Position numbers and translations under genes: made by a program. Below the pieces are notes generated by a model. The model saw nothing but the letters and a program-made list of their open reading frames with translations. It searched no databases and was not told the origin of the DNA. Shown piece after piece: positions 4,160 to 63,540 of a DNA stretch of 64,000 nt. Source of the stretch: a bacterium (GTDB lineage Bacteria > Cyanobacteriota > Vampirovibrionia > Vampirovibrionales > Vampirovibrionaceae); assembly GCA_030429585.1 (NCBI GenBank), contig JAUIEU010000001.1, forward strand, positions 353,982 to 417,981, read 5' to 3'. The stretch's first letter is position 1, and each line of letters opens with the position of its first letter.

Positions 4160-4190
4160 CTTGCTTGTAAGGCAACGTTGAGTGGGCTAT

Positions 4191-4378
4191 GCGCTACGGA
4201 TAAACGATTGATTCTGTGGCCGGGATGGTGCGTAGCTTGCGAGGAAAGCAAAATAGTTGCACGGAGTGTGCGCTACAGATAAACTATCGTTTCTGTGGCC
4301 GGGGTGGTGCGCGGCTTGCGAGGAAAGCAAAATAGTTGCACGGAGTGTGCGCTACAGATAAACTATCGTTTCTGTGGT
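4191..4378 (+). repeat. 2.4 tandem copies of a 79-bp unit (units start at 4191, 4270 and 4349) that run directly into tRNA-Pro
   Basis: Exact 79-bp periodicity. Each unit contains a degenerate copy of the tRNA 5' end (cgggatggtgcgtagcttg versus the true cgggatgtagcgcagcttgg) plus a TTGCAC-N17-TAAACT promoter-like pair (4257..4285 and 4336..4364). Confidence 0.85.
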
Positions 4379-4455
4379 CGGGATGTAGCGCAGCTTGGTA
4401 GCGCACGTCGTTCGGGACGACGGGGTCGCAGGTTCAAATCCTGTCATCCCGACCA
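4379..4455 (+). tRNA. tRNA-Pro (anticodon CGG), CCA encoded
   Basis: Hand-folded cloverleaf. Acceptor stem CGGGATG/CATCCCG, D-stem GCGC/GCGC, anticodon stem CGTCG/CGACG with loop TTCGGGA (CGG), T-arm GCAGG-TTCAAAT-CCTGT, discriminator A, then CCA. Confidence 0.9.
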
Positions 4456-4493
4456 ATTTTTATTGATAGACTTTTGCGGCGGCTAGAATTTTT

Positions 4494-5336
4494 ATGTCAT
4501 CCTTTTTTAGTGCTGAGGATTTGCATGAGTTAAATACAATTTATCAAAAAGTTAATTCTGATTATGAAAATTTATTACTCACTTATACTTATTATTTACA
4601 ACTAACAAATGAAAATGCGAATGAACATAAACAGCAGGGGTTTCTTAGGCGGTGTAGATTGTTAAAGAGAAGTATTGACAAAGTTTTTGAAATTTCTCCA
4701 TCTTAGTTAGATATGTATCTGGATGATGAACAATTGTCCGATATAAACATATATTTGCATTCTTTTATGATTAATTTGTATGGTTGTATAGAGAACTTGG
4801 CTTGGGTGTGGGTTAAGGAAAGTGGTTTTAAATACGAATATAAAGACTAATTTCGTTTTTATAATTCTAAAATTATTAATGGCTTTTCGGAGGAATTTCG
4901 AGACTATATTAATTCGGATGAATATAAAGACTGGAGAAGTCACATCGATAATTTTAGGCATGCTTTAGCTCATCGAATACCTTTGTATGTTCCACCAGCA
5001 ATATTTAATCGAGATGATAAAGTTAGATTTGATGAGATTGAGGCGAAAAAAGATGAACTTTTAAAAAATATTATGGTAATTGCTCGTAACGAAAATAATA
5101 ACTTGCTTTCGGATGTGCTGGCACAGCAGGATGTGGCTTTCAAAGAAATAAATGAGCTCGAAGCGGAAGGTCAAAATTTAGGACAATACACCCCAATAAT
5201 GACTCACTCTTATTCAGAAGGGTCTCCCAAGATTGTATTCCATGCACAGCTATTGGCGGACTGGTCTACTATTATTAAGATATCAAAGCTGTTTTTTAAT
5301 GAGCTGAATTATCAGAAAGGCATAAATGGTAATTGA
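4494..5336 (+). pseudogene. stop-disrupted ~280-codon reading frame with a HEPN-like Rx4H motif (possible decayed defence / abortive-infection-type gene) in a low-GC islet
   Basis: ORFs 4494..4706 and 4983..5336 and the open segment between them are all in the same frame. That frame is interrupted only by a TAG at 4704 and a TAA near 4849. The middle segment encodes ...DWRSHIDNFRHALAHRIPLYVP (R-x4-H). GC is about 33%. Confidence 0.45.
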
Positions 5337-5408
5337 TCTATAGTGTGTTTAACATAGCTGATATGAGTGGATAAAGAGCGAAATTGAAGTGATAAATTGC
5401 CACAATGC

Positions 5409-6914
5409 CTAAACATTGCCCAGGGTTAGTTGGTAATGCTTTTCAATTTCGTAGACTGAGTTTTTGTGCTCAATTAATTTTAATTCAGCATCTGCTGCGG
5501 AACGTTCGCGCTGGTTTACTAAAAACAAGGTGGTATCGCCTAGGCGGAACCGGATTCGTTCGCCCTCGGCTAGTTTTTTAGCGGTTTCATATTCTAGCTT
5601 AGCAGCTAAATATTGTTGGTGGCGGGCGGCCCATTCACTGGCCACGTCTTGTACTTCAATCCTAATTTGTTGGGTAATCTGTTGGGCCTCTATGGCAAGT
5701 TGGTCCATGCTTAATCGTGCCTGCCGCCGATCGCCTAATGGTTTGCGGTAGCGCAGGGGGATGTTCATCTGTATGCCGGCTTTAAATACAGGCCCAATAC
5801 TGTTGTTGCCTGTTTCCATACCATGGATAGCGCTGACATCCAGTTGGGGTAATAAATTATTAGTGGCCAGTGCTTTATCCACGGCAGCTAAGGTTTGTGC
5901 TAAACCAATCAGCTGGGGGGTGGGCCGTTGCTGTAAGGCGGTTACCGTATCACGCTCTTGTTGGTCAGCACCGGGTGGCGCAGGGGGGGTATTACCCGAG
6001 AGCCCAATTAGGCCCGGCGTTAATAGTCGCGCGTCTAATAGCATAGGGGTTTGCTGCGTTGCCACTAGCTCGCCTTTTTGTTGGGCAGGCTGCCAAAGGT
6101 ATAGCCCTAGGGCTAAGGCTTTCTCCTGCTGTGTTCGGTTTGTTTGTGCTTGCTGGCCTTGCCGTTTGGCTACCTCTCGTTTGGCTTCAGTGGCTACAAT
6201 GGCCGCTTCATCACCTAAGTCTACACGTTGCTGAATTTGATTTAACCGTAACGCCGCCAGATCGTTCAAATCGTCTACAACCGCAATACTTTGCCAGCTG
6301 GCCACCCACTGCCAATAGGTAATGTTCGCTTTGGTGAGTAGTTTTAAAGCGGATTGCCGGTACTTAATGCTTGCCATCAGTTCTTTTATTTTGGCTTGCT
6401 TTAGAGCGGCTACTTTTTCATTCATTAAAAAACCACGCAGCAAAGGTAGTTTTACCCCCCAGTAATATTCGCCGCCATCACCCGTAGGGGAGATGGGAGT
6501 TTTAATATCGCCAAGGGCTAATTTTCCTCCTGCTATAGCGGTTAAGCCAACAGAGGTAGGTAGGTTTAAGGTGACTTCATTTTCGCTTCCCAGTTGGGCT
6601 TTGCCTTCGACACTAGAGCTGTTGAATCGCTGGGTTTGGCTATTACCATTCACATAGGGGTCAAAAGCCCCTTGCTTGGATAAACGATTAGCGCCAGCAA
6701 TACCAATTTCTAAAGATGCCTGCTGCATATCGGGGTGATAGTTTAGAATACGTTCGATAAATGCATGGTAGGTTAAAGTATCAGGCGGTTTTTGTGTGAT
6801 TGGGTTTGGGCTGTTTGGTTGGGCAGCAGGCGAGTTGTTTTGGCAATACCCAATGGCGGTAATACCTATTAGGGAATAGGCCATTAAAAATAAGGTAAGC
6901 CAAAGCCGTTTCAT
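5409..6914 (-). CDS. TolC-family outer-membrane efflux protein (type I secretion OMF)
   Basis: 501 aa with an N-terminal signal peptide. It is the last gene of an ABC-HlyD-OMF operon. Confidence 0.8.
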   Translation of the reverse strand: MKRLWLTLFLMAYSLIGITAIGYCQNNSPAAQPNSPNPITQKPPDTLTYHAFIERILNYHPDMQQASLEIGIAGANRLSKQGAFDPYVNGNSQTQRFNSSSVEGKAQLGSENEVTLNLPTSVGLTAIAGGKLALGDIKTPISPTGDGGEYYWGVKLPLLRGFLMNEKVAALKQAKIKELMASIKYRQSALKLLTKANITYWQWVASWQSIAVVDDLNDLAALRLNQIQQRVDLGDEAAIVATEAKREVAKRQGQQAQTNRTQQEKALALGLYLWQPAQQKGELVATQQTPMLLDARLLTPGLIGLSGNTPPAPPGADQQERDTVTALQQRPTPQLIGLAQTLAAVDKALATNNLLPQLDVSAIHGMETGNNSIGPVFKAGIQMNIPLRYRKPLGDRRQARLSMDQLAIEAQQITQQIRIEVQDVASEWAARHQQYLAAKLEYETAKKLAEGERIRFRLGDTTLFLVNQRERSAADAELKLIEHKNSVYEIEKHYQLTLGNV

Positions 6915-6920
6915 TGCACG

Positions 6921-8348
6921 CTATTTCCGTTTTTTAACGGTTTTTAATAGTTTGGCGTCATCTTTAAAGGGGTCTTTATGGGGGCCAAAGCTAGTGGGCT
7001 TCATACCGTAATAATCTGGGGTGGGCGATACTGTTGGCGCGAACCCGTTAAACTGACGCCACAATTCAAACCAAATGGGCACGGTATCTAGCAATACCCA
7101 ACCAAGCGCCTGGCTTCCTGGCCGTAATACAGTGCTGTCGGGCCAAGGTTCTTCAGTGCCATTTTTAACGGCGTTTTTATCCGGTTTTACTAAAATGCGG
7201 TACATGCTGGCCCCATCATCGGTGGCATCTATCGCAACGATTGTTCCAGCAAACGTGCCCCGGCTTACACCGGGCCAACCCGCAAACTGAATAGCAGGGA
7301 ACCCGGCAAATTGTAGGCGCACTGGCCGCCCTACAGACAGCAACGGCGCGTTCCAATCAGCCACATAAAGTGCGGCCGCCAGGTCATTTGTTTGTGGGGT
7401 GATTTTAATAAGCGGTGTATCCGCCTTAACGGTTTCGCCTTTGCCTAGCTTAAACACCCGAGTTACTTGGCCGGATACTGTTGCGTGTATTTCTCGCTGC
7501 TCTTGGCGCTGTTTTAGGCTGGCCAGTTTGTTATTGAGTTTAGCGATATCCTGCGTTAGCTTAGCCGATTTTTCTGCCAAACTGGCCTGCTTTACCATCA
7601 CATCTTGCTGTTTAATATTGGTTTCGGCGGTTTTTTCGCCGGTGGCAAAACTAGCAATGCTGCGTTCTTGGTTGGCAATGTCTACACTGGATTTGGCTTC
7701 TTGTACATCGGCTTCTGCTTTGGCCACAGCCAATTGGGCTAATTCTAAATCGCGTTTACTGCGGAGCCCATTCGCGTACAATTCTTCTCGGCGGGATAGA
7801 TTGATTTGTGCCGTTGCTTGGGATTGTTCTGCGGCGGCTAGTTTTTGCTTAGAGGCGGCTATTTTTTGTTCTGCCTGACTAATTTTAAGTTGTGCTGCAG
7901 GAACAGCTGCTTGCTGTAGCGTTTGCTGGCTAACGAGTTGGCTCCCCATAATACCCAGTTGTTGCTGAATAGCTTGCTGTTGAGCCGTTAAAGCATCCCG
8001 TTCTTGTTGTAAACGCGCCAACTGATTAGGGTCTAAATAATCGGTTTTGACTTCTTCTAATGATAGTAACGCATCGCCCTGGTTGACCCATTCGCCTTCC
8101 GTAACGTGCCACTGGGCGATGCGGGCATCAATTTGGGCGTTAATGGTTTGGGGCCGCTCCATGGGTGAGAAAACAATGACCTCGCCTTTGCCCATAATGT
8201 TTTGTTGCCAGGGGGTTAGCCATAGGCCAAGCACCACGGCCAGTAATAAAAAACCAAGCACCCATGCCAACTGTTTGGCGTACCCATGGCTGCCAAGGCG
8301 GCTAAGGGCGGAGTTGGTAGATGACGATGCTAATTTAGCAAATGTCAT
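6921..8348 (-). CDS. HlyD-family membrane fusion protein (type I secretion)
   Basis: 475 aa with a single N-terminal TM (LAWVLGFLLLAVVLGLWL), a long Q/A-rich coiled coil and a C-terminal beta domain. Its start overlaps the ABC gene stop (TAATG at 8346..8350). Confidence 0.85.
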   Translation of the reverse strand: MTFAKLASSSTNSALSRLGSHGYAKQLAWVLGFLLLAVVLGLWLTPWQQNIMGKGEVIVFSPMERPQTINAQIDARIAQWHVTEGEWVNQGDALLSLEEVKTDYLDPNQLARLQQERDALTAQQQAIQQQLGIMGSQLVSQQTLQQAAVPAAQLKISQAEQKIAASKQKLAAAEQSQATAQINLSRREELYANGLRSKRDLELAQLAVAKAEADVQEAKSSVDIANQERSIASFATGEKTAETNIKQQDVMVKQASLAEKSAKLTQDIAKLNNKLASLKQRQEQREIHATVSGQVTRVFKLGKGETVKADTPLIKITPQTNDLAAALYVADWNAPLLSVGRPVRLQFAGFPAIQFAGWPGVSRGTFAGTIVAIDATDDGASMYRILVKPDKNAVKNGTEEPWPDSTVLRPGSQALGWVLLDTVPIWFELWRQFNGFAPTVSPTPDYYGMKPTSFGPHKDPFKDDAKLLKTVKKRK

Positions 8349-10105
8349 TAAAACCGCCCCCCATTACCGCTTAACCGTTCGGAGAGATCCGGGAACAGTA
8401 ATGAAAATTGGCCGCCAACATTTTTTGCTAATACTTCTGGCGGGCCGGATTCTGCAAAGTTTCCGTCGATTAAGACATGGGCCATATCGGTCCGTTGCAC
8501 AATTTCCGCATCGTGAGAAATATTTAGAATCGTCCACGGGTTTTCTGACGAAAAGAGCTTTTCCAAAATCCCCAGCTTGGTTTGCTCATCCATCCCTGTA
8601 AACGCTTCATCTAAAATAAGCAGTTTAGGTTGCTGCACAATGGCGCGGGCCATTAAAATTCGGTGGCGTTGCCCTAAGGATATATTGGTGCCCGCCGTTG
8701 TAATGCGGTGCTGCAAGCCATGCGGGTACTGTCGAAGATCGCGCGCCATCATTACCATATCTATGGCCCAGGCTAAGGCGCCTTGCGGCAGTTCATCTGC
8801 GGTTAAGCCCAGTAAAATATTATCTTCTACAGTGCCTTCAAACAGCTCGTATCCATCGCCTACCAACGCAATAGCCTTGCGTAGTTCCGGTAGTTTGTAT
8901 TGCCGAATATCGACGTCATTCAGGGTGATTTGGCCTGAGTGGGTATCGTGTAGCCCGCAAATAAGCCCAGCTAAGGTGGATTTGCCCATACCGCTGGGGC
9001 CGACAACGCTAGTGTGGCTTTGGGGCGGTAAATTTAAGCTAAGGTGCTGCACCACGTTTTTTTCTGGGCGGTACCCAAAGGTAATATTGTGGCACTTTAG
9101 GTGCAGCCCGTGGGTAATATCTGGTAGCGAGGTCCCATCCACGCGCTCTTGCTCAAAGCGGAGCACTTGGTGGACTTTATCTACAGCAGCCAGAAGGTCG
9201 TAACCGGATTCTAAATACTGTACTAACTTATCGGTGGCAGACAAGATGAGGAGGATAACAATTTCGCTAGCGACTAATTGCCCTAGGCTCAGTTGCCCGT
9301 TCATGACTAACCAGCCGCCAATCATCAGTACGCCGGCAGTAGCCATTGCTTCTAACATAAAATTAGCAAAGGATTGGCGAACGACGACGCGAAAGTGTCG
9401 TTGCCGAGCATCTAAAAATCGGTGCAATAAGCCATCTGTTTTGCCGAGTAAGGTGCTAGGGGCCCCATTCATTTTAAAGCTAATGCGGCTTTGCCCCATT
9501 TCTTCTAACCACTGGGCTACCCGGTACTTGGCCGCGGATTCGTCTAAGCTAGAGCTGTAGCCCCCGTAACCCAGCATAAAAATGGCGACCATACCCACTA
9601 AAAAAGTGATGTTAAACAGTAGAAACCATGGGCTGTAAAAGCTAATTAACAACATGCCAAGCATAATTTGTAATACAGAAGCGGGGCCATCTAATAATAG
9701 CTTGGCTAAGGTTTTTTGAATGGTGAGGACATCAAAAAATCGATTCAGTACCTCTGGGGCGTAGCGTTGTTTAAAGGCCACCTCGCTAACAGATAGCAGC
9801 TGGCTAGAAATAGACATGGCCGTTGTTAAAAACACTTTTTGCTGAATGAATTCCACAAGCTGAAGCTGAAGTACCCGTAACAGGCCCACAAGGATGAGCC
9901 CTGTTAATACGGCCACACCCAATACTAAAATGGGTTGGTTAAAAATGCCGCTGGCCAGGCTGCCAATAAGCCCTTGTGCTGTTAAAGGTACCGCCAGGAA
10001 GAAGACGCCAATAAATACAGTGTAGGCAGCTACAAGCCCTATATCCTTGTGGCTAGGTGTAAGCAGTGCCCAAAGGCGTTTTAAATTGGTCCACACGCTA
10101 TCCAA
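8348..10105 (-). CDS. type I secretion ABC transporter (N-terminal TMD, C-terminal NBD; no C39 peptidase domain)
   Basis: Walker A GPSGMGKST, signature ISLGQRHRILMARA and Walker B LLILDEAF. 585 aa, HlyB-like without a peptidase. Confidence 0.9.
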   Translation of the reverse strand: MDSVWTNLKRLWALLTPSHKDIGLVAAYTVFIGVFFLAVPLTAQGLIGSLASGIFNQPILVLGVAVLTGLILVGLLRVLQLQLVEFIQQKVFLTTAMSISSQLLSVSEVAFKQRYAPEVLNRFFDVLTIQKTLAKLLLDGPASVLQIMLGMLLISFYSPWFLLFNITFLVGMVAIFMLGYGGYSSSLDESAAKYRVAQWLEEMGQSRISFKMNGAPSTLLGKTDGLLHRFLDARQRHFRVVVRQSFANFMLEAMATAGVLMIGGWLVMNGQLSLGQLVASEIVILLILSATDKLVQYLESGYDLLAAVDKVHQVLRFEQERVDGTSLPDITHGLHLKCHNITFGYRPEKNVVQHLSLNLPPQSHTSVVGPSGMGKSTLAGLICGLHDTHSGQITLNDVDIRQYKLPELRKAIALVGDGYELFEGTVEDNILLGLTADELPQGALAWAIDMVMMARDLRQYPHGLQHRITTAGTNISLGQRHRILMARAIVQQPKLLILDEAFTGMDEQTKLGILEKLFSSENPWTILNISHDAEIVQRTDMAHVLIDGNFAESGPPEVLAKNVGGQFSLLFPDLSERLSGNGGRF

Positions 10106-10275: not shown

Positions 10276-11961
10276 TTACCACCCATTGCCCCAACTGGTG
10301 CCACTATTGTTTTGCCGGGCGGCGATAATATTTTTTTGTGCCGTTTGTGCAGCACTTGTTGCGTAGTCATAATACCCAGATGTTTTTGGTACCCGACGAT
10401 AATATACCTGCGCCATAGATAAATGATGGATGGCTTTTTTCCAATTCCACCAATGGAAGGCCTTAATCCCAAGCCGGTCTTCGTAAAAGGCATGGGCTAG
10501 TATGGTGATGGGGGCATTCGGCCTTGTATTGGTCCAGTGCTCCATTAGCTTTTTAATAGGTTTGGTTTTGTTTCTGTTTAGGTAACACATCATTAGGCCC
10601 AGGTGCACGGCAGAAATATCTGGTGTTTGCTTGTTTAGGGCTTCAAACGATTTGGTGGCCGTACGGTACTTTTTGTTTTTAAGTTGATCAAAGGCCAGTT
10701 CTAATTGCGTCGCTAGTTTTTGGCGGTTTTCTCTAATGCCGCTTAGGCTGCCTGTGCGAAGGACATGAGGTTGAGGCGATTGGTACTGGTTGACCAGCAT
10801 GGCGACATCGTTAGCGCTTAACCCGCGTGAGAGGATATCGATATCGTGAGATTGGAGTGGGTTCATAATATCGTTGCGGTTAGGGCTATGGTGGGTTAAA
10901 CCTAGGGCGTGGCCAAATTCGTGGAGGATGGTGGCGTATTGGGATACATCGGTAGGTTGTTCGCCCTGTGGCGTGTGGGTGGCAATAGTAATATCGACAG
11001 AAAGCAAGCTATCGCCAAGGAACATGGCATTGGTATTGCCAACGTCTTGGAAGGGTTTATCCGTTTTGTTTAATGTGTCGGCCCAGTCCACAGTAATATC
11101 CGCCTGTGCTGGGTCAGGCACTTGCTGAAAGGACACCATGTTGTTGGTTTTGCTAGACCATTCTAGTAGTGCCTTATCTACTAAGGCGGCCCATTGGGGC
11201 TGGTACCCTTCTACATTTTTACCATCCATAACCGCTATTTTAATGGGCATGGCTTGCTTCATCCACAAGTAATCCATGCGGCGATTTTGTCCCTGTCCGT
11301 TTAATTCGGCAATTTCTTTGGCAATTTGGTTGTTAATAAAGCCGGTTTGTTTTTGCTCATGTTCAATGGCGGAATCAATATTGCGTTGGTTGCTGTTTAG
11401 GTTTTGTTGATTGTGGGCCAGGTGCCGGCGGGCGTCATCGCCAAGTAAGGGGTGGTTTTGGAAAGATTCCATGATGGCACGAGCTTGTTGCAGGTATTGT
11501 TGGGTTTCTTCCAAGCGGTTGTTTTGAGATGCAACCACAGCTTGATGGGTTAGCCACGTGCCCTGGCGGTAACGTAAAATATCATCGTAGCCTGGGGTCC
11601 CTTTTTTGCTGACAAACCGGGTAAATAGGTGCTGAAACCCTTCCCAGTCTTCCATGCCGGAGTAGCACATAAACAAATGGTCAACACGGATAGGTGTGGG
11701 CCATAGTTGGTAAGCCTTTTCGTACAGTGCTAAGGCCGCTTTGTAATCCTTATTCCGGGCAAAGCTATTCGCTTCGTTGCCAGCCTTTACCATGGCATTG
11801 TATTGGTCAACCTCTGCCCGGGTGACAGGTTGCTTGGTTACGCGTTCGATGTAAGCGTCTTCTTCGGTTAGAGACTGACTAAATGCTGGGGGTAGCATAC
11901 TAGTGCCAAAGGCAATAAATAGTGCAATGGCGAGGAAGGCATGCTTCATAGTGATACTCAC
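10276..11961 (-). CDS. secreted zinc metalloprotease of the metzincin type (HExxHxxGxxH) with TPR-like repeats
   Basis: HEFGHALGLTHH zinc-binding motif, a Sec signal peptide (MKHAFLAIALFIAFGTSMLPPAFSQ) and TPR-like helical repeats in both halves. Confidence 0.8.
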   Translation of the reverse strand: MSITMKHAFLAIALFIAFGTSMLPPAFSQSLTEEDAYIERVTKQPVTRAEVDQYNAMVKAGNEANSFARNKDYKAALALYEKAYQLWPTPIRVDHLFMCYSGMEDWEGFQHLFTRFVSKKGTPGYDDILRYRQGTWLTHQAVVASQNNRLEETQQYLQQARAIMESFQNHPLLGDDARRHLAHNQQNLNSNQRNIDSAIEHEQKQTGFINNQIAKEIAELNGQGQNRRMDYLWMKQAMPIKIAVMDGKNVEGYQPQWAALVDKALLEWSSKTNNMVSFQQVPDPAQADITVDWADTLNKTDKPFQDVGNTNAMFLGDSLLSVDITIATHTPQGEQPTDVSQYATILHEFGHALGLTHHSPNRNDIMNPLQSHDIDILSRGLSANDVAMLVNQYQSPQPHVLRTGSLSGIRENRQKLATQLELAFDQLKNKKYRTATKSFEALNKQTPDISAVHLGLMMCYLNRNKTKPIKKLMEHWTNTRPNAPITILAHAFYEDRLGIKAFHWWNWKKAIHHLSMAQVYYRRVPKTSGYYDYATSAAQTAQKNIIAARQNNSGTSWGNGW

Positions 11962-12038: not shown

Positions 12039-12980
12039 TTATAAAGAAATAGTGGTAAAAATAGGGTAATGGTCGGAATTGACGCCCTTGCACCGCTCTT
12101 GTTCTAGGATGCGAATGGAATCTGACACTAGGCAGTGATCCAGGTTTAAGCACATTAGGGGCCCTAGCCATACAGGGAAGGTAAAACACAGCACGTTTAA
12201 CAACTCGTCATAGCAGTGGGGCAGGTACTTTACTAGCTTGCGGTAGTAATAATGCCATGGGGTTACATTAAAATCGCCACAAATGGCAATATGCTCACCT
12301 TGTATTGGTTCAATGGCAGCAAATAATCGCTGCCAATCCGCTTTTTGCTGGTTGTATTTGGTATAGCCCAGGCAGGCTTCTGGGTGGGTGTTTACCACGG
12401 TTAGCTCAGAATCCCTTACCTGAATGCGGGTAATAATATCGTAGGCGTTGGTTTGCTCAATGTATTCTGGGCGGCCAATAATGGGGTAACGGCTTAAGGT
12501 AACGCGTCCGGTATCCTTTTTACTGGTGCCCTCGCCGGCGGTAAACATGGCATAGTGGGATTGTTCAAAGTGATCCCTTAAATATTCAATCCACTTGGCG
12601 TTGGTTTCGCACAGTACCACCACGTCAGGCGAGTATCGTTGGATTTGCTGGGTTACGTTGGCCATTTCGTTATTGCTGTAGCAAACATTGAGCTGATAGA
12701 TGGTTAGAGTATGGGTGTTATCTTCGCCAATATGGAGTAACTCCTTGGTGATGGGGTTTCTAAACTCCAGCAATAAGATAGCCACGGGCAGCCCAAGCAA
12801 GGCCACCCCGATATACGAAAAAAATTGAGACACATACATACCGCCAACCACCATATACGCCGCCAGTATAGGGATGCGGGCATACCCCAATAGGGTGGTT
12901 AAGTAATAGGGTAGCCCTAATAGGTTAATAACCTCTAACAACAATAGGCCTAACCACACGTTTAGTAGTACCGTTTTCAT
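12039..12980 (-). CDS. endonuclease/exonuclease/phosphatase (EEP) family protein with N-terminal transmembrane anchor
   Basis: The C-terminal NSDHYPIFTTISL is an EEP hallmark. Two or three N-terminal hydrophobic helices. Confidence 0.7.
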   Translation of the reverse strand: MKTVLLNVWLGLLLLEVINLLGLPYYLTTLLGYARIPILAAYMVVGGMYVSQFFSYIGVALLGLPVAILLLEFRNPITKELLHIGEDNTHTLTIYQLNVCYSNNEMANVTQQIQRYSPDVVVLCETNAKWIEYLRDHFEQSHYAMFTAGEGTSKKDTGRVTLSRYPIIGRPEYIEQTNAYDIITRIQVRDSELTVVNTHPEACLGYTKYNQQKADWQRLFAAIEPIQGEHIAICGDFNVTPWHYYYRKLVKYLPHCYDELLNVLCFTFPVWLGPLMCLNLDHCLVSDSIRILEQERCKGVNSDHYPIFTTISL

Positions 12981-18255: not shown

Positions 18256-20073
18256 TTAATGTTTGCCAAACTGGGCTTTGCGTAGGCGAATGCTGTCTGG
18301 CGTTACTTCCATTAGCTCATCAACGGCAATGTAGTCCAAGCCAAACTCTAGGGTTACTTCAATTGGGGTAGAAAGTACTTCCATCACATCAGCGGTAGCG
18401 CTACGCATGTTGGTTAGTTTTTTGGGGCGGCATACATTAAGCTTTAAATCTTGCTGGCGGTTATTTTCGCCTACAATCATGCCGGGGTATACAGTGGTAC
18501 GTGGGGCCACAAAAAAGGTGCCACGGTCTTCTAGGTTTTTTAGGGCGTAGGCAGTGGTTTCACCTTGCTCTGCACTAACTAAAACCCCATTGCGGTGGGT
18601 GCCAATATCGCCTACCCAGGGTTGGTAATCCTGAAAGGCGGCTGTCATCATGCCCTGGCCGCGGGTTAAACGAATAAACTCGCTACGGAAGCCGAGTAAG
18701 CCACGGCTAGGGATAACAAAGCGAAGCATGGTGCGTCCGTGGCTGGCTTCCATGTGCTGCATATCTCCTTTTCGGGCGGCTAAACGTTCAATGCAAGCAC
18801 CGACACCATCATCGGGTACATCTAGCATCAGTTCTTCAAAGGGCTCGCACAGCTTGCCGTCTATCTCTTTGGTAAATACTTCTGGCTTACTAACCTGGAA
18901 CTCATACCCTTCGCGACGCATGGTTTCAATCAAAATGCTTAGGTGTAGTTCGCCACGGCCACTCACAATAAAGCTATCGGCGGTGGGGCCATCTTCTACC
19001 CGTAGGCTAATATTGCTACGGGTTTCTCGCTCTAGGCGGTCTTTAATTTGACGAGATGTGACAAATTTACCTTCGCGCCCTGCCAGTGGGCTGGTATTAA
19101 TCAGGAAGGTCATTTTGAGGGTAGGCTCTTCCAACAGGATTTTTGGCAACCCTTCCGGGGAGTCTAAGGCGCAGATGGTTTCGCCAATTTGAATTTCTGG
19201 CAACCCGGCGACGGCCACAATATCACCGGCCATGGCTTGCTCAATTTCGATACGCTTTTGGCCTTCAAAGCCAAACAGCTTGGTAACACGGTGTTGGGTG
19301 GTTTTGCCGTTGTTGCCTACCAGCGCTACGGTTTGGCCCACGTTAATGGTGCCACGGTAAATGCGGCCAATACAAATTCGGCCTAGGTAATCGTTATAAT
19401 CCAGGGTACTGGCTTGCAGCTGTAGGGGGGCGTTGGCATCGGCGCCACCGGCTACCACAGGGCTAGGGATATGTTTAATAATGCTATCAAATAAGGGGGT
19501 AAAATCGGTTAATTCGTCAGACATCTCCGCTTTGCTAGTGCCTTGTAAGCCGCACGCGTACACTACCGGAAAGTCTAATTGGTCTTCGTCGGCACCGAGT
19601 TCGATGAGTAGATCTACCACTTTATCTACAGCGCGGGCTGGGTTCGCCGCGTCGCGGTCAATTTTATTGACTACCACCACAATTTTTAGGTGGTGAGATA
19701 AGGCTTTGCGCAATACAAAGCGGGTTTGGGGCATAGGGCCTTCTACGGCATCCACAATTAGTAGGGCGCCTTGCACCATGGTCAGCACTCGCTCTACCTC
19801 GCCGCCAAAGTCAGCGTGGCCAGGGGTATCCAAAATATTAATTTTGGTATCGCCAACGGTCACCGCGCAGTTTTTGGATAGGATGGTAATGCCCCGCTCA
19901 CGCTCAAGGTCGTGGCTATCCATGGCGCGTTCTACCTTGGTTTCGTTTTCTCGGTACACGCCGCTTTGGTTAAACATACTATCGACTAGTGTGGTTTTAC
20001 CATGGTCTACGTGGGCAATAATCGCAATATTACGGATGTTATCGGCGGACGTTAGGGTAGAGATAGATGACAT
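18256..20073 (-). CDS. typA: translational GTPase TypA/BipA
   Basis: [16 protein letters not shown]1 motif, [13 protein letters not shown]; 605 aa. Confidence 0.95.
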
Positions 20074-62019: not shown

Positions 62020-63342
62020 CTATGTTGGCGTGGTTATGGGGCGCTGGTAGCGCAATTGGCCATTAATCCACACATGCTGGGCCTGGGTGGTGGGGGCCAG
62101 CCACTGGGCCAGGGCCTGGTAAGGGGTGTGGTGTCGGGGGCCAACAGTAGCATTGGTATGCCATGCCACCACATCGGCGGCCTTGCCGGGGGCTAGGGTG
62201 CCACAGCGGGTTTGCCACCCCAGTTGCTTGGCGCCGTGTTGGGTAAGCATGGCCAATAGGGTGGGTAGGGGCCACCCGTGGTGTTGGTGGCACCATCGGC
62301 CTTCGGCGCGTACATCCAGGGTATGGTTGCTTAGGGTGCTGTCCGTCCCTAAGGATAAACAGTCGGTGGGGGCGTTAGCGGCCAGGGTATGGCCGTGGAG
62401 CCACAGATTGCTACGGGGGCAGTGGCTTACCCCAATATGTGGGTGTTGGCTCATGTGGTGCCAGTCATCAGGGGTTAAGGTAACGCCGTGGGCCAGGATG
62501 ATAGGCCGTGTGGTATCGGTAAAACAGCCGTGTTGGCGTAGGTATTGGTAGGGCGAAGTAGCCTGCGGGTTGGCGGCTAGGGGTTGTGGGCCGATAGGGC
62601 TACCAAAAAAGCGTTTGTGGACATCACCTATGGGGGTGGGTTGGCCTAGCAGCCAGTGGGTTTCATCGGTGCTTTCGCCAGCATGGGTATGTAATAGGCC
62701 GGGTTGGCAAGTATCCACCATGGCCTGCCACGAGGTGGGCGACACGTTATACGGCGCATGGGGGGATAACCCGGCGGTTAATAAGGGGCTGGCTTTGCTG
62801 GCAAAATGCTGCCAATATCGTACTGGGTGGGCTGTCGGGGTGGGGGTATCCCATAAGGGCCAAAACCATTCCATGCTTACGGCCCCGCGCAAGCCACAGG
62901 CGGCTAGGGCGTGAAAACTCTCGCCAAAGGTGCTGATATCGTTGACGCCGGTGGTACCGCAGGCCAGTAAGGCCTGGGTGGCTGCCATACAGTGTTCTAA
63001 AGGGCTGTGGGGGCTGCTTTGCCGGTGGGTAATAACCTTGTTTAGCCAGTCGCCCATACTTTCATCAGCGTTAATGGGGATAGGCGTTGGGATGTGGGGC
63101 AGGGTTAGCTCTAGGTGGGTGTGGGTGTTAATCAGCCCTGGGGTTATAAACGTGGTGCCGTGGTTGGGTAGGGTGCCTAGTAACTCGCTGTGGAGGCTAG
63201 GGGCCAGCTCGTTAAGGCTACCCACGGCGGTAATAGTCTGGCCTTGCAATGCCACAAACCCGTGGGCAATAGGCGCTGCCCCGACTGGGAACACCCAATG
63301 GGCGGCGTGATAGTGTGGGGGCGAGGGTGAAGGAGGTGTCAT
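62020..63342 (-). CDS. amidohydrolase-superfamily deaminase-like enzyme (MTA/SAH or aminofutalosine deaminase-like), GC-rich and His/Pro/Trp-rich
   Basis: HxH metal site (GLINTHTHLELT) and a second HTHAGES motif. The likely start is the ATG at 63342; the ORF track extends to 63480. About 62% GC against about 50% locally. Confidence 0.7.
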   Translation of the reverse strand: MTPPSPSPPHYHAAHWVFPVGAAPIAHGFVALQGQTITAVGSLNELAPSLHSELLGTLPNHGTTFITPGLINTHTHLELTLPHIPTPIPINADESMGDWLNKVITHRQSSPHSPLEHCMAATQALLACGTTGVNDISTFGESFHALAACGLRGAVSMEWFWPLWDTPTPTAHPVRYWQHFASKASPLLTAGLSPHAPYNVSPTSWQAMVDTCQPGLLHTHAGESTDETHWLLGQPTPIGDVHKRFFGSPIGPQPLAANPQATSPYQYLRQHGCFTDTTRPIILAHGVTLTPDDWHHMSQHPHIGVSHCPRSNLWLHGHTLAANAPTDCLSLGTDSTLSNHTLDVRAEGRWCHQHHGWPLPTLLAMLTQHGAKQLGWQTRCGTLAPGKAADVVAWHTNATVGPRHHTPYQALAQWLAPTTQAQHVWINGQLRYQRPITTPT

Positions 63343-63540
63343 AAAAATGGTTGGTGGTGGAAGATGAGGAGGACGGAAACCGAATTTTGCTTTACAATAC
63401 CGTAAATGCCCGCCGTTTTGATGATGAACCGCTGGGCGGTGCCTGTAGATTTTAAAGGATAGCCCTTCGTTATGGCCCATACTGCCTCTGACGCTAAAAA
63501 AGACGGTTGCAAAGTAGCGGCAACCCTTGGTGATAAGTGG

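Follow-up and report, generated by a model that had tools for sequence, protein, structure and literature searches.

A nonsense-disrupted member of an unnamed, probably HEPN-type protein family in a low-GC islet beside tRNA-Pro of a Vampirovibrionaceae genome

Introduction

HEPN domains are recognized by an Rx4-6H motif in which a polar residue (N, D or H) comes right after the Arg (PMC3710099). The motif is located at the end of a helix, where a loop starts, and helix 2 contributes an acidic residue, usually within an Ex3[K/R] element, with inserts being frequent between helices 2 and 3 (PMC3710099). A well-described example is HepS (STM14_3211), a solo HEPN abortive-infection (Abi) protein of the Salmonella prophage Gifsy-1, which is an oligomer in its resting state, is activated by a phage protein and then cleaves tRNA anticodon loops (PMC13043305). 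Here we describe a disrupted gene with features of this kind, which occupies a short islet of low guanine-plus-cytosine (GC) content directly downstream of a tRNA-Pro gene. It was found in a 64,000-nucleotide stretch of DNA, referred to below as the window, from a member of the Vampirovibrionaceae (GenBank assembly GCA_030429585.1, contig JAUIEU010000001.1, positions 353,982 to 417,981 of the forward strand).

The locus had been singled out in an initial annotation made from the letters of the window, several claims of which are revisited here. Our preferred reading, which we hold with moderate confidence, is that the islet is a horizontally acquired, gene-sized cassette for a stand-alone protein of ~280 aa that carries two recent nonsense mutations, and that intact members of its family are most likely solo, metal-independent Abi RNases of the HEPN type.

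Results

One disrupted gene with two genuine stops

The gene presents itself as three open reading frame (ORF) fragments that share one frame (Table 1). The initial annotation had described a frame of about 280 codons broken by only two in-frame stops, and this description proved exact. Such an open frame is far beyond chance expectation, as shuffling the bases of the gene 20,000 times gave 23.4 ± 4.5 stops with a minimum of 8, and the other five frames of the same segment contain 14–43 stops each. The conceptually joined 280-aa translation, which the initial annotation had put forward for homology searches, has 235 homologs at E ≤ 0.01. The best of these (P0001, 289 aa) is 44% identical to it at 97% coverage (E 3e-68), and the other top homolog (P0002) has 282 aa. 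Homologs of 245–290 aa align straight through both stops with 96–98% coverage, and on the strength of these alignments the three fragments are taken to be a single disrupted gene. Each stop could have arisen from a sense codon by one substitution, the TAG from GAG, AAG or CAG and the TAA from GAA or AAA.

Apart from its two stops, the window copy is well preserved. All 21 residues that are invariant in an alignment of 24 sequences are kept, no frameshift is present, and deviations are seen at 10 of 57 strongly conserved columns, as compared with 6–8 in the nearest intact homologs. On these grounds, the inactivation looks recent. The initial view of the locus as the decayed remnant of an islet therefore gives way to that of one full-length gene.

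This degree of preservation is also what would be expected if both stops were sequencing or consensus errors in a gene that is in fact intact and functional. We judge that explanation highly unlikely. An independent Logan assembly of run ERR3428548 contains a 26-kb contig (L001, 2 samples) that carries the TolC-like gene together with the entire islet, and it is 100% identical to the window over positions 4425–5420, both stops included. The stops are thus not an assembly artefact, and the choice that the initial annotation had posed between base-calling errors and a genuine pseudogene falls to the latter. Moreover, two independent substitution errors within 150 bp of consensus are improbable in themselves, and nonsense-disrupted copies occur elsewhere in the family. 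In one of these (L031, 7653–8408) the stop lies at residue 172, and in another (L065, 1777–2526) it replaces the conserved W of RPWMTHS; loss by point nonsense mutation recurs in the family.

With respect to expression, the initial annotation had raised the possibility of stop-codon readthrough. Programmed readthrough or a variant genetic code would account for a frame that is kept past both stops with no further damage, but we find either barely credible. Two different stop codons would need to be decoded, and these are ordinary stops in this host, since TAA (22 cases) and TAG (10 cases) terminate all 32 long resident ORFs of the window (e.g., 216–1595 ... 62020–63480). After each of the two internal stops, the +4 position is occupied by T, which in Escherichia coli constitutes the efficient termination context. 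Furthermore, the window holds no suppressor tRNA, its sole tRNA being Pro-CGG, and an Rfam scan of the islet returned nothing beyond the tRNA and hence no recoding RNA element. Translation of the third segment by itself is likewise precluded, as no in-frame ATG, GTG or TTG lies between the TAA and position 4983, and the first in-frame start after the TAA, at 4983, is already past the motif described below. We treat the window copy as a true, ordinary pseudogene that is non-functional and whose motif-bearing part is not made.

The use of TGA in this genome deserves separate mention. The pseudogene itself ends in TGA, a codon with which none of the 32 long resident ORFs ends, and in related Vampirovibrionia-like contigs (L094, L096 and L097) 2 TGA stops were counted among 41 called genes. 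These counts amount to a strong bias of the lineage against TGA. We weighed a variant genetic code in this connection and rejected it, given that TAA and TAG act as normal stops and that no real gene lengthens under code 4; for the latter reason, the 32 long ORFs use TGA neither for termination nor as a sense codon.

Table 1. Features of the islet, of the disrupted gene and of other loci in the window (positions are those of the window)
Feature	Positions	Strand	Basis or remark
tRNA-Pro (anticodon CGG)	4379-4455	+	ARAGORN; Rfam RF00005, 63.9 bits; left islet border
Low-GC islet	4456-5408	n/a	a single gene flanked by spacers (38 bp, 72 bp)
Pseudogene of a stand-alone HEPN-like family	4494-5336	+	280 codons, 2 nonsense codons, terminal TGA at 5334-5336
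G49-F-L-R52-R53 element	4638-4652	+	conserved; G49, R52 and R53 identical in all 24 aligned sequences
First in-frame stop, TAG, codon 71	4704-4706	+	translation and alignment; aligns with D/E of conserved PP[D/E]
E100-N101 of the [D/E]NLAW element	4791-4796	+	long helix before the insert; N101 invariant
Second in-frame stop, TAA, codon 119	4848-4850	+	variable-loop position; N, E or K in nearest homologs
N-F-R155-H-A-L-A-H160-R, Rx4H motif, predicted catalytic	4950-4976	+	third segment, residues 153-161
F249-H250-A-Q252-L-L-A-D256	5238-5261	+	second conserved element, start of C-terminal helix
TolC-like OEP	5409-6914	-	type I secretion set
HlyD-like adaptor	6921-8348	-	type I secretion set
ABC transporter	8348-10105	-	type I secretion set
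Tetratricopeptide repeat (TPR)/peptidase M10 protein	10276-11961	-	after type I secretion set
Exo_endo_phos protein	12039-12980	-	after type I secretion set
Filamentous-haemagglutinin N-terminal (two-partner-secretion, TPS) domain protein, 628 aa	38837-40723	-	
ORF, 2,487 aa	42598-50061	-	

A compositionally foreign cassette beside a tRNA

The islet is bordered by tRNA-Pro on its near side and by a TolC-like gene on its far side. When GC content was computed on 953-bp windows across the 64 kb, the islet emerged as the lowest-GC stretch of this length anywhere in the window, at 32.3% against a mean of 48.3% (standard deviation 3.9%), so that the drop over ~950 bp reported initially is borne out. 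Followed in 100-bp steps, the fall is a sharp one that coincides with the ends of the ORF. The gene is compositionally foreign, and its terminal TGA, which the long resident ORFs avoid, also speaks for an outside origin. The horizontal acquisition proposed in the initial annotation is consistent with this low GC content as well as with the presence of relatives in prophages, on plasmids and near defense systems, which is detailed below. A scan of the islet for promoters and terminators gave no signal that exceeded shuffle expectation.

The same annotation had treated the adjacency to the tRNA as the signature of an island, and in that case the islet would be the last remnant of a larger island that had integrated at tRNA-Pro and had since lost the remainder. 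The position of the islet, which abuts the tRNA 3′ end, fits this scenario, and a tandem repeat upstream of the tRNA that includes degenerate copies of its 5′ part hints at past rearrangement. Nonetheless, we consider it improbable. No integrase was found in the window, the interval from tRNA-Pro to the TolC-like gene included. The last 19–25 nt of the tRNA occur only once in the 64 kb even with up to 3 mismatches allowed, which leaves no att-type repeat. A tRNA lies within 3 kb at only 4 of the 80 family loci over which neighborhoods, GC content and tRNAs were tallied. In addition, the downstream TolC, HlyD and ABC genes show resident GC content, and the low-GC unit comprises exactly one gene, as it also does in intact relatives located away from tRNAs. 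The islet is accordingly read as one complete cassette rather than as the stump of something larger. In the absence of an integrase and of a second copy of the tRNA 3′ end, and with few family loci near a tRNA, the adjacency to tRNA-Pro is best seen as incidental.

The repeat upstream of the tRNA is of interest in its own right. It consists of three tandem 79-bp units (window positions 4177–4413) that run into tRNA-Pro, copies 2 and 3 being 84% and 67% identical to copy 1. The third unit includes the first 35 nt of the tRNA, whereas units 1 and 2 contain a degenerate version of its 5′ part (CGGGATGGTGCG...AGCTTG...) together with the upstream leader. The array may reflect duplication of a promoter together with its leader, or it may be a scar from past rearrangements at tRNA-Pro.

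A large, unnamed family

At E ≤ 10, the joined window protein has no match in Pfam, PADLOC or NCBIfam, and Pfam domains are likewise absent from its top homologs. A profile built from 111 members of the family retrieved 1,888 clusters at 50% identity (E ≤ 1e-3) from among 1.84 billion representatives. In the species genomes of GTDB, 208 family loci were located. Most belong to Alphaproteobacteria, and sporadic ones to Vampirovibrionales, Planctomycetia, Nitrospiraceae and other groups. The family is therefore real and large, and it is unnamed, in that no Pfam, NCBIfam or PADLOC model exists for it.

The foreign composition of the window copy is a general trait of the family, whose gene is lower in GC than its flanks at 79 of the 80 loci (median gap −9.5 points). 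Gene-sized GC steps resembling that of the islet accompany the intact P0001 (34.7 versus 49.5) and P0002 (32.6 versus 50.0) genes. No conserved partner or antitoxin was detected when all ORFs within 4 kb were clustered by BLAST, as no neighbor family recurs at more than 6 of the 80 loci. Similarly, the 150 nearest neighbors are spread over 140 Pfam families, each seen at most twice. They range from phage portal proteins, S49 proteases, resolvases, integrases and transposases to type I restriction-modification S subunits, HNH proteins and housekeeping genes.

Several individual settings are informative. The P0001 gene (L002, 8001–8870) lies within a T7-like prophage, where it separates the major capsid gene from the scaffold gene, is encoded on the opposite strand and has a GC content ~15 points lower than that of the phage DNA around it. 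At a further locus (L007, 6248–7003), the family gene is found on the same strand between lambda-type portal and S49 protease genes, an arrangement shared by a second locus. The copies in L002 and L007 are moron-like cassettes inside late operons. P0002 is accompanied by an integrase, a Zorya type I set (ZorA/B/C/D), a methylase and ParB, and P0035 lies after a helix-turn-helix gene of the XRE type and before a transposase, near a Type ISP restriction-modification gene. Plasmid records contain 14 family copies, 12 of them on conjugative plasmids and every one annotated as "hypothetical protein", and a further 7 family matches were obtained in IMG/VR viral contigs. The family is both mobile and solo.

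A variation on this theme was observed in an alphaproteobacterial subclade (4 loci, including L024, L034 and L037), in which a conserved upstream ORF of ~254 aa with a hydrophobic segment lies on the same strand and ends 6–7 bp before the family gene (e.g., L024, 9164–9994). Neither the window nor the loci of the nearest homologs contain this ORF, a possible partner specific to the subclade.

Motif, structure model and profile matches

The feature that first drew attention to the gene is the sequence NFRHALAHR, which the initial annotation had placed in the middle segment of the frame; it in fact sits in the third and last, after the TAA. In the form R[H/D]x[L/I]AHR[I/V]P, this element is found in 111 of 111 family members and displays the Rx4H spacing of HEPN proteins. 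The motif Arg is followed by H in 101 members and by D in the other 10, and thus by a polar residue throughout, in keeping with the published definition. As judged from its retention in all 111 sequences, the Rx4H match is not a chance occurrence in AT-rich DNA. Also conserved are F249, H250, Q252 and D256 of the C-terminal element, which are invariant in the 24-sequence alignment and nearly invariant in the larger family alignment.

An AlphaFold2 (AF2) model of the joined protein (predicted local distance difference test, pLDDT, 92.8; predicted template-modeling score, pTM, 0.85) is all-alpha. Its helix 78–110, which carries the conserved [D/E]100-N101, is followed by a loop with short helices (111–141) and then by helix 142–159. 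In this model, R155 would occupy the last turn of helix 142–159 and H160 would be the first loop residue, a placement that fits the published position of the HEPN motif. By comparison with the same definition (PMC3710099), E100 is a candidate for the acidic residue of HEPN helix 2.

Profile searches with the 111 members point in the same direction. The commonest sub-threshold matches are to HEPN or Abi models, and the two matches for which the aligned stretch was inspected both span the motif. Among Pfam models, HEPN_Apea is matched by 9 members (best E 5e-3), HEPN_Swt1 by 3 (6e-3), HEPN_Cthe2314 by 2 (6.9e-4) and Abi_2 by 1 (0.017). Sub-threshold PADLOC matches comprise AbiD in 5 members (P0001, E 1.1e-3, residues 117–221), Csx1 in 1 and Csx1/Csm6 in 1, and PHROG 2158, described as "abortive infection resistance protein", is matched by 2 members (E 4e-5). 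In sum, three defining features of HEPN proteins are found in the family, and profile scores stay below formal thresholds. The family is probably a divergent, undescribed HEPN family. Of the HEPN-type motif claimed initially, the motif itself thus stands, with its full conservation and its polar residue, and membership in HEPN is probable at a level short of curated cut-offs.

Other loci in the window and relatives of the host

The proteins of the window are singletons at 90% identity. With regard to relatives of the host, TypA (18256–20073) is 72–75% identical to proteins of Vampirovibrionales and of Melainabacteria metagenome-assembled genomes, and the tryptophanase next to tRNA-Pro shares 72% identity with a protein from Vampirovibrio. 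The tryptophanase gene is directly preceded by an ORF of 213 aa (2048–2689, + strand) whose GC content is also low, at 38.8% overall and ~33% over the 3′ half. This ORF has neither an NCBIfam match nor similarity to the gene at the same position in L094, and may be a second foreign or orphan gene.

On the far side of the islet, the type I secretion set and the two genes that follow it (Table 1) probably represent an exporter plus its secreted enzymes. Further downstream, the TPS-domain protein and the 2,487-aa ORF look like a two-partner-secretion or giant-adhesin locus.

Discussion

Taken together, the results describe a dead copy of a mobile family whose intact members, on our preferred reading, would act as solo HEPN-type Abi RNases. 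In terms of mechanism, intact proteins would remain silent until a phage cue arrives. R155 and H160 contributed by two protomers would then form a composite active site, and the activated protein would cut host or phage RNA and thereby halt infection. This scheme is drawn by analogy with single-protein HEPN defenses such as AbiD/AbiF or HepS, and it combines a putative HEPN fold, a predicted RNase chemistry and a presumed anti-phage role.

The main alternative grants that the family is real and the window copy dead, but holds that the protein is not a HEPN RNase or defense factor at all. It would instead have some other accessory role in phages or plasmids, such as that of a regulator or an anti-defense protein, and the R-x4-H residues would be structural or ligand-binding. 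We regard this as unlikely, albeit not to the point of dismissing it, as a number of observations weigh against our own reading. No HEPN or Abi model is matched at its curated threshold, with the scores for Abi_2, PADLOC AbiD and HEPN_Apea (the last with the family consensus) all falling below the cut-offs. A Foldseek search of the AF2 model against PDB and BFVD gave nothing significant, and the family profile found nothing among PDB sequences at E ≤ 10. Many family copies lie between housekeeping genes rather than in recognizable defense islands, and a tblastn search of 50,697 GenBank phage records yielded no family match. All of these points would sit well with the alternative. Added to them are the form of the conserved [D/E]100-N101, which differs from the canonical Ex3[K/R] element that was not identified, and the status of RNase activity, toxicity and phage defense as properties that we infer for the members. 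Finally, the nearest relatives found, L094 and L096 (tnaA 72–73%) and L097 (TypA 88%), are non-syntenic and devoid of tRNA-Pro, the TolC-like gene and the family gene, and are thus too distant to show an intact ortholog or an empty site. What favors a HEPN assignment over the alternative is that the motif matches the HEPN definition exactly, as do the polar nature of its second residue and its placement where a helix ends, and that the solo, low-GC, moron-like placement of the genes resembles that of known solo HEPN defenses such as HepS.

A broader proposal, which we advance tentatively and rate as somewhat short of likely, is that the family constitutes a class of solo HEPN nucleases for abortive infection that is widespread but has so far gone undescribed, and whose genes move as gene-sized low-GC cassettes of roughly 0.85–0.95 kb, without a recombinase of their own, into diverse sites. 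If true, the effector family would be new, and so would the way in which it spreads.

For the host genome, the impact of the islet is small, as it holds a single dead gene with no effect on the adjoining tRNA or on the type I secretion operon. Its broader interest is that it draws attention to a family without annotation that combines a conserved HEPN-type motif, foreign composition, a solo character and neighborhoods of the moron or defense kind, a profile that resembles the one that led to the solo HEPN defense HepS. Intact members such as P0001 and P0002 are accordingly plausible candidates for a new system of phage defense that consists of one gene, and the family merits a model in annotation libraries. 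The window copy also indicates that defense-type cassettes reach the Vampirovibrionia, which are relatives of Cyanobacteria that do not photosynthesize, and that simple nonsense mutation leads to their loss in this group.

Comparison with known systems

Among the described systems, the HEPN-MNT (HepT/MntA) toxin–antitoxin modules of types II/VII were compared through the structural match 4nqf. The family protein is about twice the size of HepT, and in contrast to these modules it is accompanied by no MNT nucleotidyltransferase or other conserved neighbor. Specifically, when the Pfam families of the 150 nearest neighbors are ranked by frequency, the top 25 include no nucleotidyltransferase, and none lies beside the window gene.

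The ApeA-like (PF18739), Swt1-like (PF18731) and Cthe_2314-like (PF18730) HEPN proteins share with the family an R[N/H/D]xxxH where helix 3 ends, and in the case of HEPN_Apea the match of the family consensus covers the motif. These matches are sub-threshold, however, and the beta-rich N-terminal domain of ApeA is absent from the family, whose own N- and C-terminal helices have no counterpart in the three models.

The lactococcal AbiD/AbiD1/AbiF proteins (Abi_2, PF07751; PADLOC AbiD) are similar to the family in being stand-alone, of comparable size and borne by plasmids or phages. The point of contact with Abi_2 is P0003 (E 0.017), of which residues 101–161, the motif region, align with positions 127–183 of the 184 in the profile. 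The scores of 15.9 bits for Abi_2 and at best 16.8 bits for PADLOC AbiD are nonetheless to be set against a Pfam gathering cut-off of 25.6 bits, and similarity is confined to ~60–100 residues around the motif. Furthermore, only 1 of the 111 members touches Abi_2 and 5 touch PADLOC AbiD.

With HepS, sequence or structural homology to the family was not found. In the family, the motif is followed by a long helical hairpin, a distinct FHAQxLAD element is present, and the copy in the window is dead. The likeness lies in organization. Both HepS and the family proteins act alone as far as gene content goes, lacking any conserved gene for a partner or an inhibitor, both occupy accessory (moron) positions in prophages, and both carry an RX4H motif, formed by R100 and H105 in HepS and by R155 and H160 in the window protein. 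The two traits of a HepS-type system, a missing partner gene and a frequent prophage location, are accordingly present in the family, and by analogy HepS would be the best model for the action of its intact members.
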